The notes under the pieces are model-generated. The model saw only the letters and a list, made by a program, of their open reading frames with translations, made no database searches and was not told where the DNA came from. From contig NZ_CP032551.1 of assembly GCF_009734345.1 (NCBI RefSeq), forward strand, positions 870,001 through 902,000: DNA of 32,000 nt, in the 5' to 3' direction. This DNA is from Pseudidiomarina andamanensis. GTDB lineage: Bacteria > Pseudomonadota > Gammaproteobacteria > Enterobacterales > Alteromonadaceae. This document shows positions 18,426-26,191 of this stretch, piece by piece (within the stretch, counting starts at the first letter, position 1; each line of letters starts with the position of its first letter). A program made the translations under genes and the position numbers.

Positions 18426-19793
18426 ATGGCCTCACGTGCTTTATTTGCGCTTACCGCAGCAGCCGCATTCGTACTTGCTAGTTGTTCTAGCACCGCGAAT
18501 AATTCAACTGTCGACACCACTGCTTCGAAGGAGCAATCGCCAAATATCATTTTTATGATTGGCGATGGCATGGGCTTTGAGTTTATCTCAGCCTATCGTT
18601 ATGCCATGAGCCAGCGCGGCACCGGTGAGCTTGCGCCAACGCCATTTGATGATCTGTTGGTGGGCGCAGCAACGACATATCCTGATGATGATACTTGGGT
18701 GACCGATTCAGCCGCTAGTGCAACAGCCTTAGCAACCGGCGTGAAAAGCTACAACGGTGCTATTGGCATTGATGCAGATAAAAACCCAAAACAAACTCTG
18801 ATGGAGTTAGCTCGCGATAAGGGTTGGTCGACCGGTGCTGTTGCTACGGTGCAAGTAAACCATGCCACCCCGGCAAGTTTTTTTACCCATCACCCCTCGC
18901 GCAATCTGTATAACGATATTGCTGATTCTTATGCCCAGCAAGTGAGCGCAGGTGGTTGGAGTTTTGATGTACTTTTAGGTGGCGGTCACAGTTACTTCAA
19001 GCGTGACGATGTGAACTGGTTACCGCAGCTTGAGCAGCAAGGTCTCCAAGTTATTACCGAGCTAGAGCAGCTTGACGACGTATCGGCTAGCCCAGTATTG
19101 GGACTTTTCGCGGACAAAGCACTGCCCTTTGCCATTGATGATCGTCCAGGACGTCTTGCCGAGATGACCAAGCATGCATTGCGGCTTCTTGAAAACCGAT
19201 CTGAGCAAACTGGCAAGCCGTTTGCATTGATGGTTGAAGGTAGCATGATTGATTGGTGTGGACATGCAAATGATATCGCCTGCGCCGTGCATGAAATGGC
19301 GGATTTCGCCGCTGCCGTCGAGGTAGTGCGAGATTATCTTGCTGATAATTCTAATACCTTATTAGTTATTACGGCCGATCATTCAACCGGTGGTTTAACG
19401 TTGGGTCAAGGGGGTGAATATGCTTGGTACTCAGAAAAAGTGATGGGTATTCAAAAATCGGTGGAAGCGATGGCCACTGAGTTAGTGCAACTACCGAAGT
19501 CAGCTTGGCGCGACTACTTAACGCCTGAGTTGAATCTGCCACTAACCGATAGTCAATGGCAACAACTGGAGTCAGTGACCATTGATGAGCAACTCAAAGG
19601 TCGCGACAAACTCAAGCCAGTTCATCAGGTATTAGTGCAGATTATCAGCGAACATACGCGTACCGGTTGGACGACTTCTGGTCATACCGCTGTCGATGTT
19701 CCTGTGATGGCCGTAGGCCCTGGTGCAGAAGCCTTCCGTGGCTACATTGATAACACCGATATTGCTAAAGCCTTATTGAAGCTGGTGCGTTAA
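18426..19793 (+). CDS. phoA: alkaline phosphatase (PhoA family), lipoprotein
   Basis: IFMIGDGMG and the active-site VTDSAASATALATG are present, along with metal ligands near DWCGHAND and ITADHSTGG. The lipobox is VLAS-C. The start is set at the ATG at 18426, with AGGA 8 nt upstream. The ATG at 18417 is possible. The track's TTG at 18393 falls immediately after the predicted -10 (18387-18392), upstream of the likely transcription start. Confidence 0.9.
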   Translation: MASRALFALTAAAAFVLASCSSTANNSTVDTTASKEQSPNIIFMIGDGMGFEFISAYRYAMSQRGTGELAPTPFDDLLVGAATTYPDDDTWVTDSAASATALATGVKSYNGAIGIDADKNPKQTLMELARDKGWSTGAVATVQVNHATPASFFTHHPSRNLYNDIADSYAQQVSAGGWSFDVLLGGGHSYFKRDDVNWLPQLEQQGLQVITELEQLDDVSASPVLGLFADKALPFAIDDRPGRLAEMTKHALRLLENRSEQTGKPFALMVEGSMIDWCGHANDIACAVHEMADFAAAVEVVRDYLADNSNTLLVITADHSTGGLTLGQGGEYAWYSEKVMGIQKSVEAMATELVQLPKSAWRDYLTPELNLPLTDSQWQQLESVTIDEQLKGRDKLKPVHQVLVQIISEHTRTGWTTSGHTAVDVPVMAVGPGAEAFRGYIDNTDIAKALLKLVR

Positions 19794-19803
19794 GCGCACC
19801 AGC
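19781..19803. other. 9-bp perfect hairpin spanning the overlapping stop codons of convergent phoA and the asnB-like gene
   Basis: GCTGGTGCG-TTAAG-CGCACCAGC. The loop contains both stop codons (TAA 19791-19793 on the plus strand, TAA 19792-19790 on the minus strand). There is no flanking U-tract on either strand. Confidence 0.6.
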
Positions 19804-21805
19804 CCAATTCGTTAGCCCGCTGTTGGGCTAACGCTGGCACATCCGTTTTAACAAAATGATGATGGAGAATTTGCACACCTAACATGTGATTAATCACAGC
19901 ATCAAGCTGCACCTTCTCATCAATCGGTACTTCGTCTGACTCATGACGCGCAAAAGTACGTTGCACTTCATCAAAATCAAGTAAGCCCGCTTCTTTCACT
20001 GCATCTTCAGATAAAAACTGTTCCGCAAGTTTCAATACCGCTCGCCACTTCTTCGGATCGGTATGCGCCGGCGGCGCCATAAACGCAAACTTTTCACGCT
20101 TATACAACGTCTCCGGCAACAACCCTTTCATGGCTTCGCGCAGCACATATTTCTCTTTATTGCCTTTAATACGCAGATGCGGCGGTACGGTAAAGGCGTA
20201 TTCAGCAAGGTGATGATCTAAAAACGCAGGTCGTGCCTCCATTGAGTTTGCCATATCGACTCGGTCACCACCCCACGTTAATATCTGCCCTTCTAACATG
20301 GTTTTAATCCACACATATTGCGCGCGGTCGAGTGGATGACGTCCTTTTAACATGGTTTCATCTAATGTCGCGGCAATGGCTTTGCCGGCATCGTATTCTT
20401 GCAGGCCTTCTCGACGCTCGGCTGCAATTAACGGCAGTGCAACATCACCGCATGACAACCAAGGTTGAACGCAGCTTGGCGTGAAACCCATTTTGGCATT
20501 GAATGCAGCGCTTACAAACTCTTCGCGCGCTAACATGGCCCCTTTAAATAGCTTGTTGTTCTTCTCCAACAATTCTTGCCACGCTTTACGTTCGCTATCT
20601 GGTAAATGGTCTAACCCATGTAAAAACATATCTTTGCGAAATGCTGGATAGCCCGCAAAAAGCTCATCTGAACCTTCGCCAGTAAGCACCACCTTGTAGC
20701 CAACTTCGTTTACCTGCTGACTCATCAGGTACTTGGCAACACCCAACGTGTTATAGATGGTGCGCTCGGTATGCCAAATGGTTTTCACGAAATGGTCATA
20801 AAGGTCATCAGCTTTCAAACGCATAATGTGATGATCAGCGCCAGTTGCCTCAGCCATTTCTTGAGCAATAGGCGTCTCATCGTAGTCATCCGAATCAAAG
20901 CCAATGGTAAATGCCTTCACCGAAGTTTGTGTCGCCGCAGCTGACAAGCCAAGAATAGCGCACGAGTCAATGCCACCGGATAAATAGCAACCAACCGGAA
21001 CGTCAGCGGTTAAGCGATGTTGTACCGCCTCTAATAGGTGTTCACGAACGCCGTCAATGTATTGCTGTTCATCCACGTCATCGCCCGGATACTCATGCTC
21101 TAGAGGAAAGTTAACATCCCAGTATTTTGACTCACTTAGCTCAAGTTTGTCGTTTTTGCGAGTCACTTTCACAACATGACCAGGAGCAACCTGTTTTACG
21201 CCTTTGAACGCTGTTGTACCTGGCACCATCACTTGAATTAACTGGTGATATAAACCCTCACTCGAGAACTCACGCTTCACCGATGGATGCGCAAATAGTA
21301 CTTTAAGCTCTGAACCAAATACGACGCCATCTGCTGTTTCGGTGTAATACAGAGGTTTGATACCGAATCGGTCGCGCACTAAATACATGGCGTCTTCATT
21401 ACGATCGTACAAGCCGAATGCGAATTCTCCGCGTAAATGTTTCAGCGTTTCTTCCAGACCTTCACGCGCGTACAAATGCAAGACGATTTCTGAGTCGCTT
21501 TTGCTACGAAAACGAGCACCTTGTGCGGTTAAATCGGCGCGAATACGTTTAAAATCATAAAACTCACCGTTGTGCGCCAATAATAATTGACCACTATCGC
21601 TGACAAACGGTTGCCGCGCGCGATCTTCGTTTAAATCGATAATTGACAATCGCGCGTGGCTGAACCCCACACCCGTGTTGTCGAGAATTTGATAGCCAAA
21701 ACCATCTGGCCCGCGGTGATGCATGATGGCTGCCATATTTACCAAGGTTTGTGCATCTGGCTTCAGCTTGGCATCACGATTAAATATTCCTGCTATTCCA
21801 CACAT
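19790..21805 (-). CDS. asparagine synthetase B-family glutamine-dependent amidotransferase (long form, 671 aa)
   Basis: It has the N-terminal nucleophile MCGIAGIF of an Ntn glutaminase domain (HRGPDG, AHNGEFYD, SDSE). The PP-loop YLSGGIDS is at residues 275-281, followed by TGEGSDELFAGY. It is about 115 aa longer than E. coli AsnB. An AGAGGA Shine-Dalgarno lies 10 nt upstream. Confidence 0.85.
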   Translation of the reverse strand: MCGIAGIFNRDAKLKPDAQTLVNMAAIMHHRGPDGFGYQILDNTGVGFSHARLSIIDLNEDRARQPFVSDSGQLLLAHNGEFYDFKRIRADLTAQGARFRSKSDSEIVLHLYAREGLEETLKHLRGEFAFGLYDRNEDAMYLVRDRFGIKPLYYTETADGVVFGSELKVLFAHPSVKREFSSEGLYHQLIQVMVPGTTAFKGVKQVAPGHVVKVTRKNDKLELSESKYWDVNFPLEHEYPGDDVDEQQYIDGVREHLLEAVQHRLTADVPVGCYLSGGIDSCAILGLSAAATQTSVKAFTIGFDSDDYDETPIAQEMAEATGADHHIMRLKADDLYDHFVKTIWHTERTIYNTLGVAKYLMSQQVNEVGYKVVLTGEGSDELFAGYPAFRKDMFLHGLDHLPDSERKAWQELLEKNNKLFKGAMLAREEFVSAAFNAKMGFTPSCVQPWLSCGDVALPLIAAERREGLQEYDAGKAIAATLDETMLKGRHPLDRAQYVWIKTMLEGQILTWGGDRVDMANSMEARPAFLDHHLAEYAFTVPPHLRIKGNKEKYVLREAMKGLLPETLYKREKFAFMAPPAHTDPKKWRAVLKLAEQFLSEDAVKEAGLLDFDEVQRTFARHESDEVPIDEKVQLDAVINHMLGVQILHHHFVKTDVPALAQQRANELGWCA

Positions 21806-21822: not shown

Positions 21823-22887
21823 TTATACGACGTCTATGACACGCTCAGCGCGTTCTACCATGCATGTCAAAAGGGCCATGCGTAAAAATACCGCACCACG
21901 CGCTTGGCTGAAGTACCAGTTATGCGTAGTGTGATCGAGATCAGTCGATAACTCCTCGCCACGCGCTAAAGGATGCAGAATAATCGCATCCTCTTTCAAT
22001 GGCGATTTTGCCGTCAAATGAAAGGCGCTACCGTAGGTGTTAAAGGTATCGCCTTCCCACGATATGGCGTTTATATACACCACATCTAAGCTAGATAAGA
22101 CCTCTTCGAGTTCAGTACTCGTTGTAATATGAATGCCTCTCGCTTCAAGTTCTTCCCGTTGACCTACGCCAAATAAATCAGTAGAGCTGGCTTCATCATG
22201 AATGATCACCAACTCTTCCACGGCATGCGGAAACACCGATAAACATTTAAGAAAACTGCGCACGGTACGCATTTTGTTCGGTACGCCAATCACGCCAATG
22301 CGAATCTTTGTGTTATTTGCAGCATCAATAAGTTCTGGTCGCCATTTAAAAATGGCATACATATCCGCAAGCGCTTGCGTCGGGTGCTCATCCACACCAT
22401 TACCCGCATTAATAATGGGAATGCGCAGTGCATCCATCATTTCAAACAACGAACTTTCATTATTATCACGCAACACCACGCAGTCGCCGTAGTTATTGAA
22501 CATTTCAGCAACGTCAGCCAAACACTCACCTTTGGCAATGCCAGTCGTTGAGCGATCGGTGATTGACATAATATCGCCACCGAGGCGATGCCAAGCGCTC
22601 TCAAATGAAAGCCGCGTACGCGTGCTTGGTTCGTAAAATGCGCTAATCAAAATTTTATTTTGTAACGGCGAGCTGAAACGCTTCGGGTTACTTTCAATTT
22701 TTGCTGCTAAGCGAAATAGCTGTTTCATGGTGTCTTGATCAAACTGATCGCCAGACACAATATGCTGATTCGCTAGTTTGACTAAATAGTCACCATCTTC
22801 CTGAATCACCCTGAGCAAGGCTTTCGGATGCGCGTCGCCATAGACATCAGGCCGCTCACGTTCAAATGAGACATCGTTCATATTCAT
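21823..22887 (-). CDS. aspartate carbamoyltransferase-like transcarbamylase paralogue, second substrate unknown
   Basis: 354 aa. FYEPSTRTRLSFE (STRTR = 22612-22626, verified on the DNA), HPTQALAD, MRTVRS and LHPLARGEE match the ATCase catalytic-chain motifs. It also carries a roughly 36-aa N-terminal extension and has the aspartate-site RxQ replaced (see findings). Confidence 0.75.
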   Translation of the reverse strand: MNMNDVSFERERPDVYGDAHPKALLRVIQEDGDYLVKLANQHIVSGDQFDQDTMKQLFRLAAKIESNPKRFSSPLQNKILISAFYEPSTRTRLSFESAWHRLGGDIMSITDRSTTGIAKGECLADVAEMFNNYGDCVVLRDNNESSLFEMMDALRIPIINAGNGVDEHPTQALADMYAIFKWRPELIDAANNTKIRIGVIGVPNKMRTVRSFLKCLSVFPHAVEELVIIHDEASSTDLFGVGQREELEARGIHITTSTELEEVLSSLDVVYINAISWEGDTFNTYGSAFHLTAKSPLKEDAIILHPLARGEELSTDLDHTTHNWYFSQARGAVFLRMALLTCMVERAERVIDVV

Positions 22888-22893
22888 AGTGTG

Positions 22894-23013
22894 TTACCAA
22901 AGTTGTTTAGAAATGAAATCTTTTAACCACAGCGCTATCAAAATGAGCGGCGCCATCGCTGCGAAAATAAGGCAAATCATCACTAACGCGCTAAATTCGG
23001 TTAATCCGAGCAT
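22894..23013 (-). CDS. 39-aa hydrophobic micro-protein (not in the ORF track), possible symporter accessory subunit
   Basis: My translation is MLGLTEFSALVMICLIFAAMAPLILIALWLKDFISKQLW*. The ATG (23013-23011) overlaps the symporter TAA (TAATG). An AGGAG Shine-Dalgarno (23026-23022) lies 8 nt upstream. The TAA (22896-22894) is 6 nt before the ATCase-like ATG. The ORF fills an otherwise unexplained 125-nt gap. Confidence 0.55.
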   Translation of the reverse strand: MLGLTEFSALVMICLIFAAMAPLILIALWLKDFISKQLW

Positions 23014-24440
23014 TACGATGACTCCTGTAATTTGTTCCAATCAAAATTTTGCTTCGAGCGCCAAACACCTATCGCACAAACTGCTGCAGATAGCGCACAG
23101 GCGGTAAGTGCGGCGACATAAAATCCAATTAAAAAATAACTCACAAGGCCAAGCAGTGTGCCGCCAGCCATGGCCACTGCCGCGTATTTCCCAGATAGCT
23201 TATTTTGATATAAGCCGAAAACTATTGGGAAAATCGTACTGGCAACAAACGCACCGGCAAAATTCAATAAGGCGCCCAAAGTGGCAACCTGAGGTAAACA
23301 GAACAGCCAGGTCAACACGCCAATTCCAGCAATACAATAGCGATTAAACGTAAATAATTGCTTGTCGGTTGCCTTTGGGCGTAATTTTTTGTGGTAAAAG
23401 TCTCGCGTTACTAAATCGGATGTTGCTGCAAGTAATGAATCAAGACTAGACGCTAACGCTGAAAAAACCACGATAAACACAACAACGGCACCAACTTTAC
23501 CAAGCACCTCAGCGGCAACCATCGGGCCTACCATATCGGCACTGGGAGGGAAAATGCCTAATTGTGGCGCAGCCAGCGCGATAAATCCGGTGACAATTGG
23601 AATCGGCAGCCAGAGCAAACCACCAAGTAAAAACGCTTTAAACGCAACGTTCCCTTTAAACGCGAGTGCACGAGACCACCACACATTCGAATGAAATATT
23701 TCGCCCAGGCCGAAAAATATATTGTTAAACAGAAACATAATGGCGGCTGGAAACATTAAGTCGAGTAATCGAGGATGATTCTCTGATAATTCGGTATGAA
23801 TACTTTCGAGGCTCACCGTATCAATTAAAAACCAAGCAATACCAACCACCCCGATGATAATGATCAACGCTTGGATAAAATCGGTGGCGATGACCGCACG
23901 TAGACCGCCAAACAAGGTGTAGCCAACGCAGATTACCAGAATAGCCGTCATGCCAATGTGATAATCCAAGCCACTCAACGCTTCGAGTAATATACCTCCC
24001 GCCATACCAAGGCTGACGAGCCAACCGAAGGCATAAACCACCGAAATGACCATAAATACCCACCACGCCGCTCGACCAAAGCGCAGACGGATAAAGTCAC
24101 CTGAGGTATAACCATGCGGCATTAAACGCTTTATACGCGCCGCAAGCGGTGCAAATAGAATAAGTCCCAGTGCGGCAAACGAATACCCCACCATACCCCA
24201 GATACCGAACTGATAGGTCAATTGCGGGGCGACAAGTGTGGTGTTACTGGTCACCCAGGTTGCCATCGCTGTTGCTGCGGCTAATGCGAAGCCCACGTTA
24301 CGCCCCGCTAGCGCAAAATCTTCGTGAGTTTTATTCGCACGCCCTAAATACCAGCCAAATGCTATCCAGAGCAATCCAAAGATCACTACCAAACTGAGCC
24401 CAAGGGTACTATCTAATGCAAAATCTGCAGTTTCACTCAT
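23013..24440 (-). CDS. sodium:solute symporter (SSF) family transporter
   Basis: 475 aa polytopic protein. The N-terminus (DFALAGRNVGFALAAATAMATWVTSNTTL) is typical of PutP/PanF/ActP-type SSF proteins. A GGAG Shine-Dalgarno lies 8 nt upstream, and the ATG overlaps the upstream ORF by 8 nt. Confidence 0.8.
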   Translation of the reverse strand: MSETADFALDSTLGLSLVVIFGLLWIAFGWYLGRANKTHEDFALAGRNVGFALAAATAMATWVTSNTTLVAPQLTYQFGIWGMVGYSFAALGLILFAPLAARIKRLMPHGYTSGDFIRLRFGRAAWWVFMVISVVYAFGWLVSLGMAGGILLEALSGLDYHIGMTAILVICVGYTLFGGLRAVIATDFIQALIIIIGVVGIAWFLIDTVSLESIHTELSENHPRLLDLMFPAAIMFLFNNIFFGLGEIFHSNVWWSRALAFKGNVAFKAFLLGGLLWLPIPIVTGFIALAAPQLGIFPPSADMVGPMVAAEVLGKVGAVVVFIVVFSALASSLDSLLAATSDLVTRDFYHKKLRPKATDKQLFTFNRYCIAGIGVLTWLFCLPQVATLGALLNFAGAFVASTIFPIVFGLYQNKLSGKYAAVAMAGGTLLGLVSYFLIGFYVAALTACALSAAVCAIGVWRSKQNFDWNKLQESS

Positions 24441-24972
24441 GCGCTCGGCTCCGACGATGTTGATGCAGAATGATCACGACGAGAATTGCAAACAGCAGGC
24501 CACCAAGGGCAAACAAGGTTAGCGCTTGTTCTAAAGCGTAGTGATCCACCTGAACGCGCACCACGTTACTTACCTGGTTACTTGACTGAATACTTGGCTG
24601 AGAGTTTTTCGGGCTTAGGCCGCCTGATTCATCCGCAACTGCGCGGATACGAAAGTAGTGATTACCGTCATCGAAGCCGGTGAGTGTCATACGTTGAAAA
24701 TCACCAAACCAAGGATAAGTGCGCTCAATCTCACGAAAATCTTCGTCTGTTGAATACTCAACAATGAAACCTTGAGATGGTGATTCAGATAGGCTCAACA
24801 CAAAATAGCCTTCGCGACTTGATTCTGGCGCAGATAACTCCGGTAGCGAGCTGTTCGCCAAATTGGATGGGTTGGTTTGGGAAGATAAAACGTAGGCAGA
24901 AGCGGGTCGCGCAAGCAGCGTGATGAGTAACAACAAAGCAATGTTTATAACGAACCTTGCGCGGTCTGGCAC
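24433..24972 (-). CDS. bitopic membrane protein: signal peptide, beta-rich (FN3/Ig-like by pattern) periplasmic domain, C-terminal TM anchor
   Basis: 179 aa from a GTG start with AGGAAGGA upstream. The signal peptide is INIALLLLITLLARPASA-Y. The pattern GYFVLSLSESPSQGFIVEYSTDEDF...LTGFDDGNHYFRIRAV looks FN3-like. The C-terminus has a TM helix (LTLFALGGLLFAILVVIIL) followed by HQHRRSRAHE. I recognise no family. Confidence 0.6.
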   Translation of the reverse strand: MPDRARFVINIALLLLITLLARPASAYVLSSQTNPSNLANSSLPELSAPESSREGYFVLSLSESPSQGFIVEYSTDEDFREIERTYPWFGDFQRMTLTGFDDGNHYFRIRAVADESGGLSPKNSQPSIQSSNQVSNVVRVQVDHYALEQALTLFALGGLLFAILVVIILHQHRRSRAHE

Positions 24973-25068: not shown

Positions 25069-25485
25069 ATGCATCCGATTTATTTATGTAGCATGGGCGC
25101 CAATATCGCGCCAGAAAGCAATTTTGCTGCCGCTCGCGAGTCGATCTCAGAGCTGGGCAAAGCTTATTATTCACGCGCTATCTATACACAACCCGTTGAT
25201 ATGCGCAGTGACCATGACTTCCTCAATGCCCTATTTTTAATCGTTTCACCGTTAGACAGTATTGCTCTCAAAAAGCGGTTCAACGCTATCGAGATTAGTC
25301 TGGGGCGAGATCGTGATGATCCGCTTAGTAGTAAAAAAGATCGCCCAATGGATATCGACATTTTGGGTGAGCTGAACTCTGACCTAGTGTGGCAAGAAGT
25401 ACCTGACTATTTGCAAGAAGTCGTTCCAAACCTTAAACCAATCGCTGATAAACTTGTTCAAACGCAAGGGGCATTACATGACTAA
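25069..25485 (+). CDS. divergent, short HPPK-like protein (FolK fold)
   Basis: 138 aa. By eye it aligns to E. coli FolK: YLCSMGANI / YIAIGSNL; YSRAIYTQP / SSFYRTPP; DFLNALFLI / DYLNAAVAL; IEISLGRDR...DRPMDIDIL / IELQQGRVR...PRTLDLDIM. Confidence 0.6.
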   Translation: MHPIYLCSMGANIAPESNFAAARESISELGKAYYSRAIYTQPVDMRSDHDFLNALFLIVSPLDSIALKKRFNAIEISLGRDRDDPLSSKKDRPMDIDILGELNSDLVWQEVPDYLQEVVPNLKPIADKLVQTQGALHD

Positions 25486-26191
25486 TTCAAAGAAGTTTGC
25501 TTTAGTGACCGGCGCAGGTCGTCGATTTGGCTTAGCTTTGGCACATGCACTGCTCGATGAGGGGTATCAGGTACTTGCTCATTACAACACGTCTAAAGAC
25601 GGCATAGATGAACTTGAACAGCGCGGTGCCATTGGTTTACAAGCAAACTTAGCAAACTTAAATGACGTGCATCAGTTAATTCAGGCTGTGCAACAACATT
25701 GCCCGAAATTGCATCTATTGGTTAACAACGCATCATGCTTTTTTGATAACCAACGTGTGGATGAAAGTGATGCCAATCTCGTCGCGGTATTAAATGTGCA
25801 CACCGCAGCGCCCTACTTGCTGATTAACAAGCTACAGCAGCAGCTCACCAATGCCGAAGGTAGTGTCGTTAATATCACCGACATCTATGTTGATAGCCCC
25901 TCTACCGACTATATCGCGTATTGCGCAGCGAAAGCTGGTTTAGCAAGTTTGACACAAGCATTTGCCAAAAAATTAGCCCCAGCGGTGCGCGTTAACGCAA
26001 TCCAGCCGGGGCCAATATTATTTTTGCCTGAGCACGATAGCCAGCACCGTAAAAAAGTACTCGCTGAAACACCACTGAACCTTGAAGGAGGTTTAGAGCC
26101 GATGATAGCTGCGGTGCGCTTTTTACGCGACAACCCATTTATCACCGGCGAATCCATCAAAGTAGATGGTGGCCGCGCTTTGACCATTTAG
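25478..26191 (+). CDS. folM: FolM-type short-chain dehydrogenase (pteridine / dihydromonapterin reductase-like)
   Basis: Trimmed to the ATG at 25478, with AAGGGG 7 nt upstream and an 8-nt overlap with the HPPK-like stop. VTGAGRRFG fits the TGxxxRxG signature that distinguishes FolM/PTR1-like SDRs from the classical TGxxxGxG. The catalytic YCAAK is present. Confidence 0.7.

Follow-up and report, generated by a model that had tools for sequence, protein, structure and literature searches.

The 32,000-nucleotide stretch of Pseudidiomarina andamanensis DNA analysed here (contig NZ_CP032551.1, positions 870,001 to 902,000; hereafter the window) carries on its minus strand a five-gene cassette. Its fourth cistron, the target of this analysis (21823..22887, minus strand), is an open reading frame of 354 aa with an ATG start that encodes a paralogue of aspartate carbamoyltransferase (ATCase), and we place it in the marine "pseudo-ATCase" group. 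The genes around it encode a sodium:solute symporter, two small membrane proteins and an AsnB-type amidotransferase. A sequence-only reading of the gene had predicted a transcarbamylase with an acceptor other than aspartate. That prediction is supported by an intact carbamoyl-phosphate site, a family-wide loss of aspartate ligands, the scores against ATCase models, the presence of PyrB and ArgF elsewhere in the genome and a separate clade, and on this evidence the target would be a catalytically competent transcarbamylase whose acceptor is not aspartate.

Pfam recovered both transcarbamylase domains in the target (OTCace_N, 134.7 bits; OTCace, 41.2 bits), and the top NCBIfam model was the ATCase model TIGR00670, with 201.5 bits against a cut-off of 236.95. 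The ATCase model NF002032 gave 189.8 bits against a cut-off of 263, and on the remaining NCBIfam ATCase and ornithine carbamoyltransferase (OTCase) models the target fell further below each model's own cut-off, reaching at most 110 bits on OTCase models whose cut-offs are at least 280. The OTCase motifs DxxxSMG and HCLP were not found in the target sequence. Its closest solved relatives were chains of E. coli PyrB (HMMER, E ~4e-45), and the first-ranked structure match was the P268A mutant of that enzyme, which fits the HPLAR motif of the target. An AlphaFold2 model computed with a 30-sequence family alignment (predicted local distance difference test, pLDDT, 71; carbamoyl-phosphate loop poorly defined) matched ATCase catalytic chains in Foldseek with TM scores of 0.75-0.80, normalised to the target.

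Residues were paired through a HMMER alignment to the E. coli PyrB chains and a MAFFT alignment with 36 orthologues, and both reproduced the correspondences that the sequence-only reading had drawn by eye: S52-R56 with S88-R92 (STRTR), R105 with R140, H134-Q137 with H168-Q171 (HPTQ), R167 with R207, and HPLPR with HPLAR at 305-309. The carbamoyl-phosphate ligands S52, T53, R54, T55, R105, H134 and Q137 are all kept in the target, and K84, which in PyrB reaches the site from the adjacent chain, is retained as K119. The same reading had proposed that R229 and Q231 are lost while allowing that a proper alignment might yet recover their equivalents; in both alignments the target segment DILYMTRVQKER pairs with DVVYINAISWEG of PyrB, and both residues are replaced, R229 by A274 and Q231 by S276. 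The RxQxER motif of the PyrB 240s loop is in this way replaced by N-A-I-S-W and a three-residue deletion that removes E233, R234 and L235. Further changes from PyrB to the target are G166 to M, H106 to D and K232 to W, and the third PyrB motif, HPLP, reads HPLA, a variant that is invariant across the target's family.

Conservation among the 36 orthologues follows the same lines. E. coli position 229 is occupied by A in 34 of them and by S in 2, position 231 by A in 31, S in 4 and V in 1, and positions 228, 232, 166 and 268 are invariably N, W, M and A. The carbamoyl-phosphate ligands, R105, R167 and K84 are invariant as well. The residue pattern is a family-wide one and not a chance lesion. 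The N-terminal extension of about 36 residues, also described in the sequence-only reading, proved real: R10, D14, G17, A19, P21, K22, L24, L25 and other residues within it are invariant, which indicates a part of the protein rather than a mis-called start.

The 2.41-Mb host genome holds three transcarbamylases, namely a canonical PyrB, ArgF and the target. The canonical PyrB carries TRIQQER and HPLPR and is located away from the cassette, and ArgF, also away from the target, sits in an argC-argB-argF-argG cluster. In a maximum-likelihood tree rooted on OTCases, the target groups with other HPLAR-type sequences, 26 in all, in a clade supported at 98/95, and 15 canonical ATCases form the sister group; the closest homologue of the target is a 95% identical protein of P. 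donghaiensis. Because PyrB and ArgF are encoded elsewhere, the ATCase scores lie under the cut-offs and the clade is separate, the target is, as far as its sequence and context can tell, not the cell's pyrimidine ATCase. The earlier description of an uncharacterised specificity class within the ATCase clade holds for its first half but not for its second, the position in this tree being that of a sister group. The canonical PyrB gene (L001 1453-2499; G000:C1 ~1408140-1409186) encodes a protein of the long class, about 340 aa, with a HPLPRDSRAEANE insertion, and the gene after it is neither pyrI nor pyrC but resembles that of glutamate-1-semialdehyde aminomutase.

Downstream of the target, with its start 17 nt past the transcarbamylase stop, the last gene of the operon (cistron 5; 19790..21805, minus strand) encodes an AsnB-type glutamine-hydrolysing amidotransferase of 671 aa. 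It has the Pfam domains GATase_7 and Asn_synthase, scores 456 bits on TIGR01536 and begins MCGIAG, so that the Cys2 nucleophile is kept. Cistron 2 (23013..24440, minus strand) encodes an SSF sodium:solute symporter of 475 aa (Pfam SSF, 101 bits), which reached 138.8 bits on the NCBIfam model TIGR00813 against a cut-off of 184 and stayed under every specific cut-off. Gene order was compared over 80 genome loci from Idiomarinaceae, Kangiella, Alteromonas, Bowmanella, Ketobacter, Pseudomaricurvus, Pleionea and Thiotrichaceae, 40 of which were counted as distant. The trio of symporter, transcarbamylase and amidotransferase is intact in 76 of the 80 (59-96% identity per gene), and contig ends cut the other 4. 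The amidotransferase lies directly downstream of the transcarbamylase in 79 loci, the contig ending in the remaining one, and the symporter lies directly upstream in 78 (59-89% identity), with L047 and L072 ending at a contig edge.

The remaining two cistrons are small. Cistron 3 (22894..23013, minus strand), recognised from its translated open reading frame and its tblastn conservation, encodes a membrane micro-protein of 39 aa with a single helix; one base is common to its ATG and the symporter TAA, and 6 nt separate its stop from the transcarbamylase ATG. Peptides of the same length, ending ..LW or ..IW, were found by tblastn at the same position in 75 of the 80 loci, across several orders, and the micro-protein is likely a small subunit of the symporter. 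Cistron 1 (24433..24972, minus strand), whose stop overlaps the symporter start by 8 nt, encodes a bitopic membrane protein of 179 aa that begins with a signal-like helix, is rich in beta structure in its middle part and ends in a transmembrane anchor. This protein had no Pfam or NCBIfam match, homologous open reading frames of ~150-190 aa occupy the same position in 34 of the 40 distant loci, and it is probably an accessory subunit of the symporter.

A promoter and terminator scan of the operon returned fewer sites than shuffled sequence did, with none meaningful on the coding strand inside the operon. Divergent from the cassette, at 25069-26191 on the plus strand of the window, an HPPK-like open reading frame (138 aa, below the folK cut-off) overlaps a gene for an SDR resembling FolM and pteridine reductase; among the 80 loci, this pair stands beside the cassette only within Idiomarinaceae.

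The amidotransferase is the sole Asn_synthase-family gene of the host genome, which has AsnA and AsnRS, while GatB was not found there; with this complement the amidotransferase is not needed for asparagine, and a role as housekeeping asparagine synthetase was rejected on the presence of AsnA and AsnRS. Cyclisation of the hydantoin or beta-lactam type, as an AsnB-like enzyme might carry out, was likewise rejected, the glutaminase Cys2 being kept.

A family survey, made with a library-wide homologue search and a motif table, separated a gammaproteobacterial subfamily A, which includes the target and has the motif YINAI[A/S]W, from a subfamily B that is about 46% identical to A and has the motif Y[MV]NSIA[FY]. 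Hosts of subfamily B include Nitrosomonas marina, N. aestuarii, Stieleria, Roseiconus, an Oscillatoriales cyanobacterium, marine Novosphingobium and Croceicoccus, and others. The cassette is the same in subfamilies A and B: in the subfamily-B loci L095, L103 and L104 the micro-protein is called as a gene of 39-40 aa, and homologues of the cistron-1 protein are present in these three and in L105. The signature N-[AS]-I-[AS]-[WFY] is common to subfamilies B and C, the latter represented by a variant operon (L097 2568-9929) with the order carA-carB-transcarbamylase-AsnB, in which the transcarbamylase has 316 aa and is without the N-terminal extension. A carbamoyl-phosphate synthetase dedicated to the L097 operon implies a high-flux product. 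An AsnB-like gene follows the transcarbamylase also in Nitrosomonas marina, Stieleria, a cyanobacterium and two metagenome contigs; every subfamily-B and C locus has such a partner downstream, and the partners are orthologous throughout (46-65% identity, Cys2 kept). Of 400 gammaproteobacterial genomes sampled evenly, 24 (~6%) carry a homologue at E <=1e-70, and the named hosts of homologues are mostly marine or saline.

The survey also touched relatives of other kinds. Two further HPLAR-type clades, in L096 7001-15080 (Actinophytocola) and L101 1-14700, lie in clusters with genes for TenA, a JmjC/cupin protein, APH-type kinases, a ThiD-like kinase and dCMP deaminase, and with thymidylate-synthase-like and nucleoside deoxyribosyltransferase-like genes. 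These clusters resemble a bacimethrin-type pyrimidine antimetabolite pathway, and their AsnB-like gene begins MAG, that is, without the glutaminase Cys. A degenerate group of about 355 aa (P0136, P0138, P0140, P0141, P0145, P0153 and others; L098 7001-8065) has 35-41% identity to the target and, like it, carries the N-terminal extension, with STRTR, HPTQ and HPLxR decayed (for example to SRSQ, NPTH and HTGQR). Its place beside subfamily A in the tree is weakly supported, the AsnB-like gene was absent from the single context examined, and its members are possibly true pseudo-enzymes derived from the target's family.

Hydrolases recur next to the cassette. An amidase of the M20 hydantoinase/carbamoylase family adjoins it in 29 of the 40 distant loci and scores ~510 bits on NF006771; its second-best model, ErtE (N-carbamyl-L-glutamate amidohydrolase), gave ~375 bits, under the ErtE cut-off, and the best model is that of a generic allantoate-amidohydrolase/carbamoylase subfamily. 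Isochorismatase-type or asparaginase-type amidases adjoin the cassette in other loci. The host genome has an M20 orthologue (58% identical) that stands alone ~0.9 Mb away and not beside the cassette, in an uninformative neighbourhood, and no orthologue of the isochorismatase-type amidase was found in that genome. Carbamate kinase was found neither in the cassette nor anywhere in the host genome, and allantoinase was not in the cassette across the loci examined. Recurrent carbamoylase and amidase neighbours are what the dismantling of a carbamoylated and amidated amino acid needs.

Genes of osmoadaptation are a second kind of neighbour. In Stieleria maiorica three genes on the strand of the cassette come immediately before it: one for a glycine/sarcosine N-methyltransferase (GSMT; 491 bits, above cut-off), one like that of a sarcosine/dimethylglycine methyltransferase (SDMT-like) and one for a BCCT transporter nearest to the betaine type. 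An M20 gene and an isochorismatase-like hydrolase come after the cassette. In Nitrosomonas marina an MscK-like mechanosensitive channel abuts the cassette, and in L097 a fusion gene of the sucrose-phosphate-phosphatase type and GT20, cut at the locus edge, ends ~2.4 kb upstream of the carA start.

N-carbamoyl-glutamine amide has been known as a solute since 1991, from one purple sulfur bacterium. A review names the accumulator of N-carbamoyl-L-glutamine 1-amide as Ectothiorhodospira marismortui, "also known as E. mobilis" (PMC1224877), and NCBI taxonomy resolves E. marismortui to E. mobilis. The E. mobilis genome has, in a row, genes for an M20 enzyme, an isochorismatase-like amidase, a transcarbamylase (60% identical to the target) and an AsnB-like enzyme (66%). 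Ectothiorhodosinus mongolicus, the only pufLM carrier among the 23 other positives of the gammaproteobacterial sample, has an operon of M20, isochorismatase-like amidase, transcarbamylase (64% to the target), AsnB-like (65%) and MscS genes. A sucrose synthase of ~800 aa is encoded beside, and divergent from, the M20-transcarbamylase-AsnB cluster in both (E. mobilis, L131 12938-15322; E. mongolicus, L107 3513-5942), and together these genes would make up a small osmolyte island in the two purple sulfur bacteria. Ectothiorhodosinus mongolicus has been singled out as being without betaine and ectoine synthesis genes and in need of an alternative solute, for which N-carbamoyl-glutamine amide was one of several candidates (PMC7824335). 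Within the GTDB family of Ectothiorhodospira and Thioalkalivibrio, the transcarbamylase is present in 49 of 55 genomes and in all 41 of the high-quality ones, its carriers including E. shaposhnikovii, E. magna, E. lacustris, E. marina, E. sp. PHS-1, E. mobilis and Thioalkalivibrio sulfidiphilus. Protein searches with the carAB-linked variant of L097 and the Nitrosomonas marina orthologue named no Ectothiorhodospira homologue.

What the target may do can be framed from its binding site outwards. Alpha-carboxylate ligands that are kept, together with beta-carboxylate ligands exchanged for small residues, point to an acceptor that is an L-alpha-amino acid and whose side chain is neutral and probably longer than that of aspartate; the acceptor is probably such an amino acid, with L-glutamine as the best candidate. 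Carbamoyl phosphate would be bound exactly as in ATCase, the alpha-carboxylate of the acceptor would be held by R140, R207 and K119 of the neighbouring subunit, and its side chain would enter a pocket made larger and uncharged through R229A and Q231A/S and lined by the invariant N273 and W277. The amidotransferase would then adenylate the alpha-carboxyl group of the N-carbamoyl amino acid and amidate it with glutamine-derived ammonia, and the end product would be an uncharged N-carbamoyl amino acid amide. Import or recapture of the solute or a precursor may fall to the symporter together with the two small membrane proteins, and the M20 carbamoylase, whose gene is adjacent in many genomes and elsewhere in the host, would degrade it. 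The carAB-linked variant, along with a host genome in which no carbamate kinase was found, argues for synthesis rather than phosphorolysis.

These parts of the proposal differ in strength. That the transcarbamylase and the AsnB-like enzyme make an N-carbamoyl amino acid amide solute, with the activity, product and osmotic role this entails, seems to us about evenly poised. The more specific suggestion that the product is N-carbamoyl-glutamine amide is possible and is put forward tentatively. Short of an even chance, too, is the full statement that the target is an L-glutamine N-alpha-carbamoyltransferase, an activity not yet described, and its solute a widespread, overlooked, nitrogen-rich marine osmolyte.

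Several points weigh against this proposal. The acceptor is deduced only from residues that were lost, and the AlphaFold2 model is moderate (pLDDT 71), which puts pocket geometry beyond its reach. It is unusual for the first enzyme-sized gene of a synthesis operon to be a symporter, and uptake with conversion would be compatible with this layout too. An amide carbonyl is as possible a partner for R207 as a carboxylate, so that either of the two steps could come first. By Pfam and NCBIfam, no osmoregulation genes lie beside the cassette in the window. The Ectothiorhodospira link rests on species synonymy and not on the producing strain, and since the whole family carries the cluster when the solute has been reported from very few members, the link does not discriminate; it is necessary for the hypothesis and weak as proof. 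To our knowledge, moreover, solute surveys of Rhodopirellula and marine Synechococcus do not list N-carbamoyl-glutamine amide. Both genera carry the marine pseudo-ATCase group (PMC4016543).

Some of these points also bear on the closest alternative, in which the same carbamoylation and amidation take place on another acceptor (asparagine, alanine, serine, glycine or similar) or for another purpose, such that the product, instead of acting as an osmolyte, might mainly store nitrogen or serve in signalling or metabolite exchange. The lost ligands exclude only a side chain with a beta-carboxylate, the M20 neighbour is best matched by a generic allantoate-amidohydrolase/carbamoylase model and lies under the ErtE cut-off, a symporter-first operon suggests uptake, and the window itself is without osmotic neighbours, all of which would suit this alternative. 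It is nevertheless rather unlikely in our judgement, since osmoadaptation genes recur beside the cassette in four unrelated lineages, an enlarged pocket suits a longer side chain, and the species that produces the glutamine derivative (PMC1224877) has the genes. We know of no natural product other than the glutamine derivative that carries exactly this pair of modifications, a carbamoyl and an amide group. A more distant scheme has the cassette working in reverse, as a catabolic module in which the symporter imports a ureido compound and the transcarbamylase phosphorolyses it to carbamoyl phosphate and an amine, in the manner of catabolic OTCase, PTCase and UGTCase. The transporter at the head of the operon and the often adjacent carbamoylase would agree with it, and the Rubrobacter UGTCase, the characterised member of the wider pseudo-ATCase set, is catabolic (PMC4016543). 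It is quite improbable, however, given that no carbamate kinase was found in the cassette or the host genome, that the obligate partner is an ATP-consuming amidotransferase with its glutaminase Cys intact, and that one variant sits in an operon with carbamoyl-phosphate synthetase genes.

The conserved core of transcarbamylase and AsnB-like gene, sometimes with carAB, could also be read as a guanidino route, in which the ureido oxygen is adenylated by the AsnB-like enzyme, in the way known from argininosuccinate synthetase, and then displaced by ammonia, so that an amine becomes a guanidino compound. The synthetase domain of AsnB and argininosuccinate synthetase are both PP-loop ATP pyrophosphatases, which counts in its favour, but we know of no member of the AsnB family that does guanidino chemistry, the recurrent hydrolase neighbours are carbamoylases and amidases and not guanidinases or amidinohydrolases, and nothing specific was found for this route, which we regard as very improbable. 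A second, divergent aspartate carbamoyltransferase for pyrimidines, or an inactive pseudo-enzyme, is the least credible of the alternatives and extremely improbable. Databases do annotate the target as aspartate carbamoyltransferase, and its best structural and sequence matches are ATCases; against an isozyme stand the loss of R229 and Q231 in every member, scores under the ATCase equivalog cut-offs and the canonical PyrB of the host genome. Against a pseudo-enzyme, the carbamoyl-phosphate ligands are all invariant at 65-95% identity across orders, and the truly degenerate sister group, in which the carbamoyl-phosphate motifs are lost, looks quite different.

Synthesis of an N-carbamoyl amino acid amide by the transcarbamylase and the amidotransferase is the reading we prefer, and as a hypothesis on the target's function it is specific and has fairly good support; it would establish a new specificity among transcarbamylases along with the genes of an orphan osmolyte. 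If it is true, genes would be assigned to an orphan compatible solute, a well-studied transcarbamylase family would gain a new acceptor specificity, and thousands of annotations as "aspartate carbamoyltransferase" and "asparagine synthase" in marine genomes would be corrected. Under the more tentative glutamine version of this reading, the solute would be spread over ~6% of sampled Gammaproteobacteria and over marine nitrifiers, planctomycetes, cyanobacteria and sphingomonads, and would have a dedicated Na+ symporter of three parts as well as recycling enzymes of its own. With four N atoms per molecule, such a nitrogen-rich solute could matter for osmoadaptation and for marine dissolved organic nitrogen, its relevance extending to nitrifiers and picocyanobacteria.

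Paralogues of this kind were named "pseudo-ATCases" by Barba, Dutoit, Legrain and Labedan in 2013 (BMC Syst Biol 7:99, PMC4016543), whose marine members include Rhodopirellula baltica RB13301 and proteins of Nitrosococcus oceani, Synechococcus WH8102 and Kangiella koreensis. They described the motifs STRT, HPTQ and HPLA, with AIA, AIS or SIA instead of RxQ, and a synteny with a Na+ symporter on one side, a so-called "asparaginase" on the other and a HyuC-like carbamoylase "in nearly all cases" (PMC4016543). The function of the marine group was left open, a Rubrobacter enzyme of another subgroup being the only one characterised; the subgroup numbering in the table of that paper disagrees with its text (PMC4016543). 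The residue observation of the sequence-only reading is confirmed, but its novelty is reduced, as a marine group with the same motif changes and synteny had already been described in outline in 2013 (PMC4016543). No later use of the term "pseudo-ATCase" was found in the searchable literature, and a 2015 transcarbamylase review does not treat the marine group. A literature search on N-carbamoyl-glutamine amide biosynthesis, R. baltica locus tags and nuclear magnetic resonance of Idiomarina solutes returned nothing relevant beyond the papers cited here, and biosynthesis genes for N-carbamoyl-glutamine amide are in no paper of the searchable literature.

By its STRT, HPTQ and HPLA motifs, its A-I-S, its symporter and AsnB-type flanks and its marine host, the target is a member of the marine pseudo-ATCase group of that study, as far as motifs and synteny can assign it; it differs in that the HyuC-like amidohydrolase is not adjacent to it in the host genome. 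What the present analysis adds to PMC4016543 are the two small membrane cistrons, the N-terminal extension, the carAB variant, the osmolyte-gene neighbourhoods and the Ectothiorhodospira link. With PyrB (EC 2.1.3.2) the target shares the fold, the carbamoyl-phosphate site, K84, R105 and R167, at ~30-35% identity, whereas R229 and Q231 are gone, the 240s loop is shorter by 3, P268 has become Ala and G166 Met, and a 36-aa N-terminal extension, the lack of a pyrimidine context, a separate clade and a sub-cut-off score set it further apart. UGTCase of Rubrobacter xylanophilus is likewise an enzyme of the ATCase branch that is annotated as ATCase and is without the RxQ motif, but it is catabolic and lies in a purine-catabolism cluster with carbamate kinase and allantoinase, neither of which neighbours the target. 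A further comparison is with N-acetylglutaminylglutamine amide (NAGGN), made by asnO-ngg. The amidotransferase of the cassette scored 317.9 bits on the NAGGN AsnO model TIGR03104 against a cut-off of 570 and does not belong to the AsnO family, and the block on nitrogen would be carbamoylation by a transcarbamylase instead of acetylation and peptide formation by Ngg. The proposed pathway would resemble the NAGGN system in its logic, with the alpha-amino group of glutamine blocked, the alpha-carboxyl group amidated by an AsnB-type amidotransferase to give an uncharged solute, and a hydrolase often encoded alongside.

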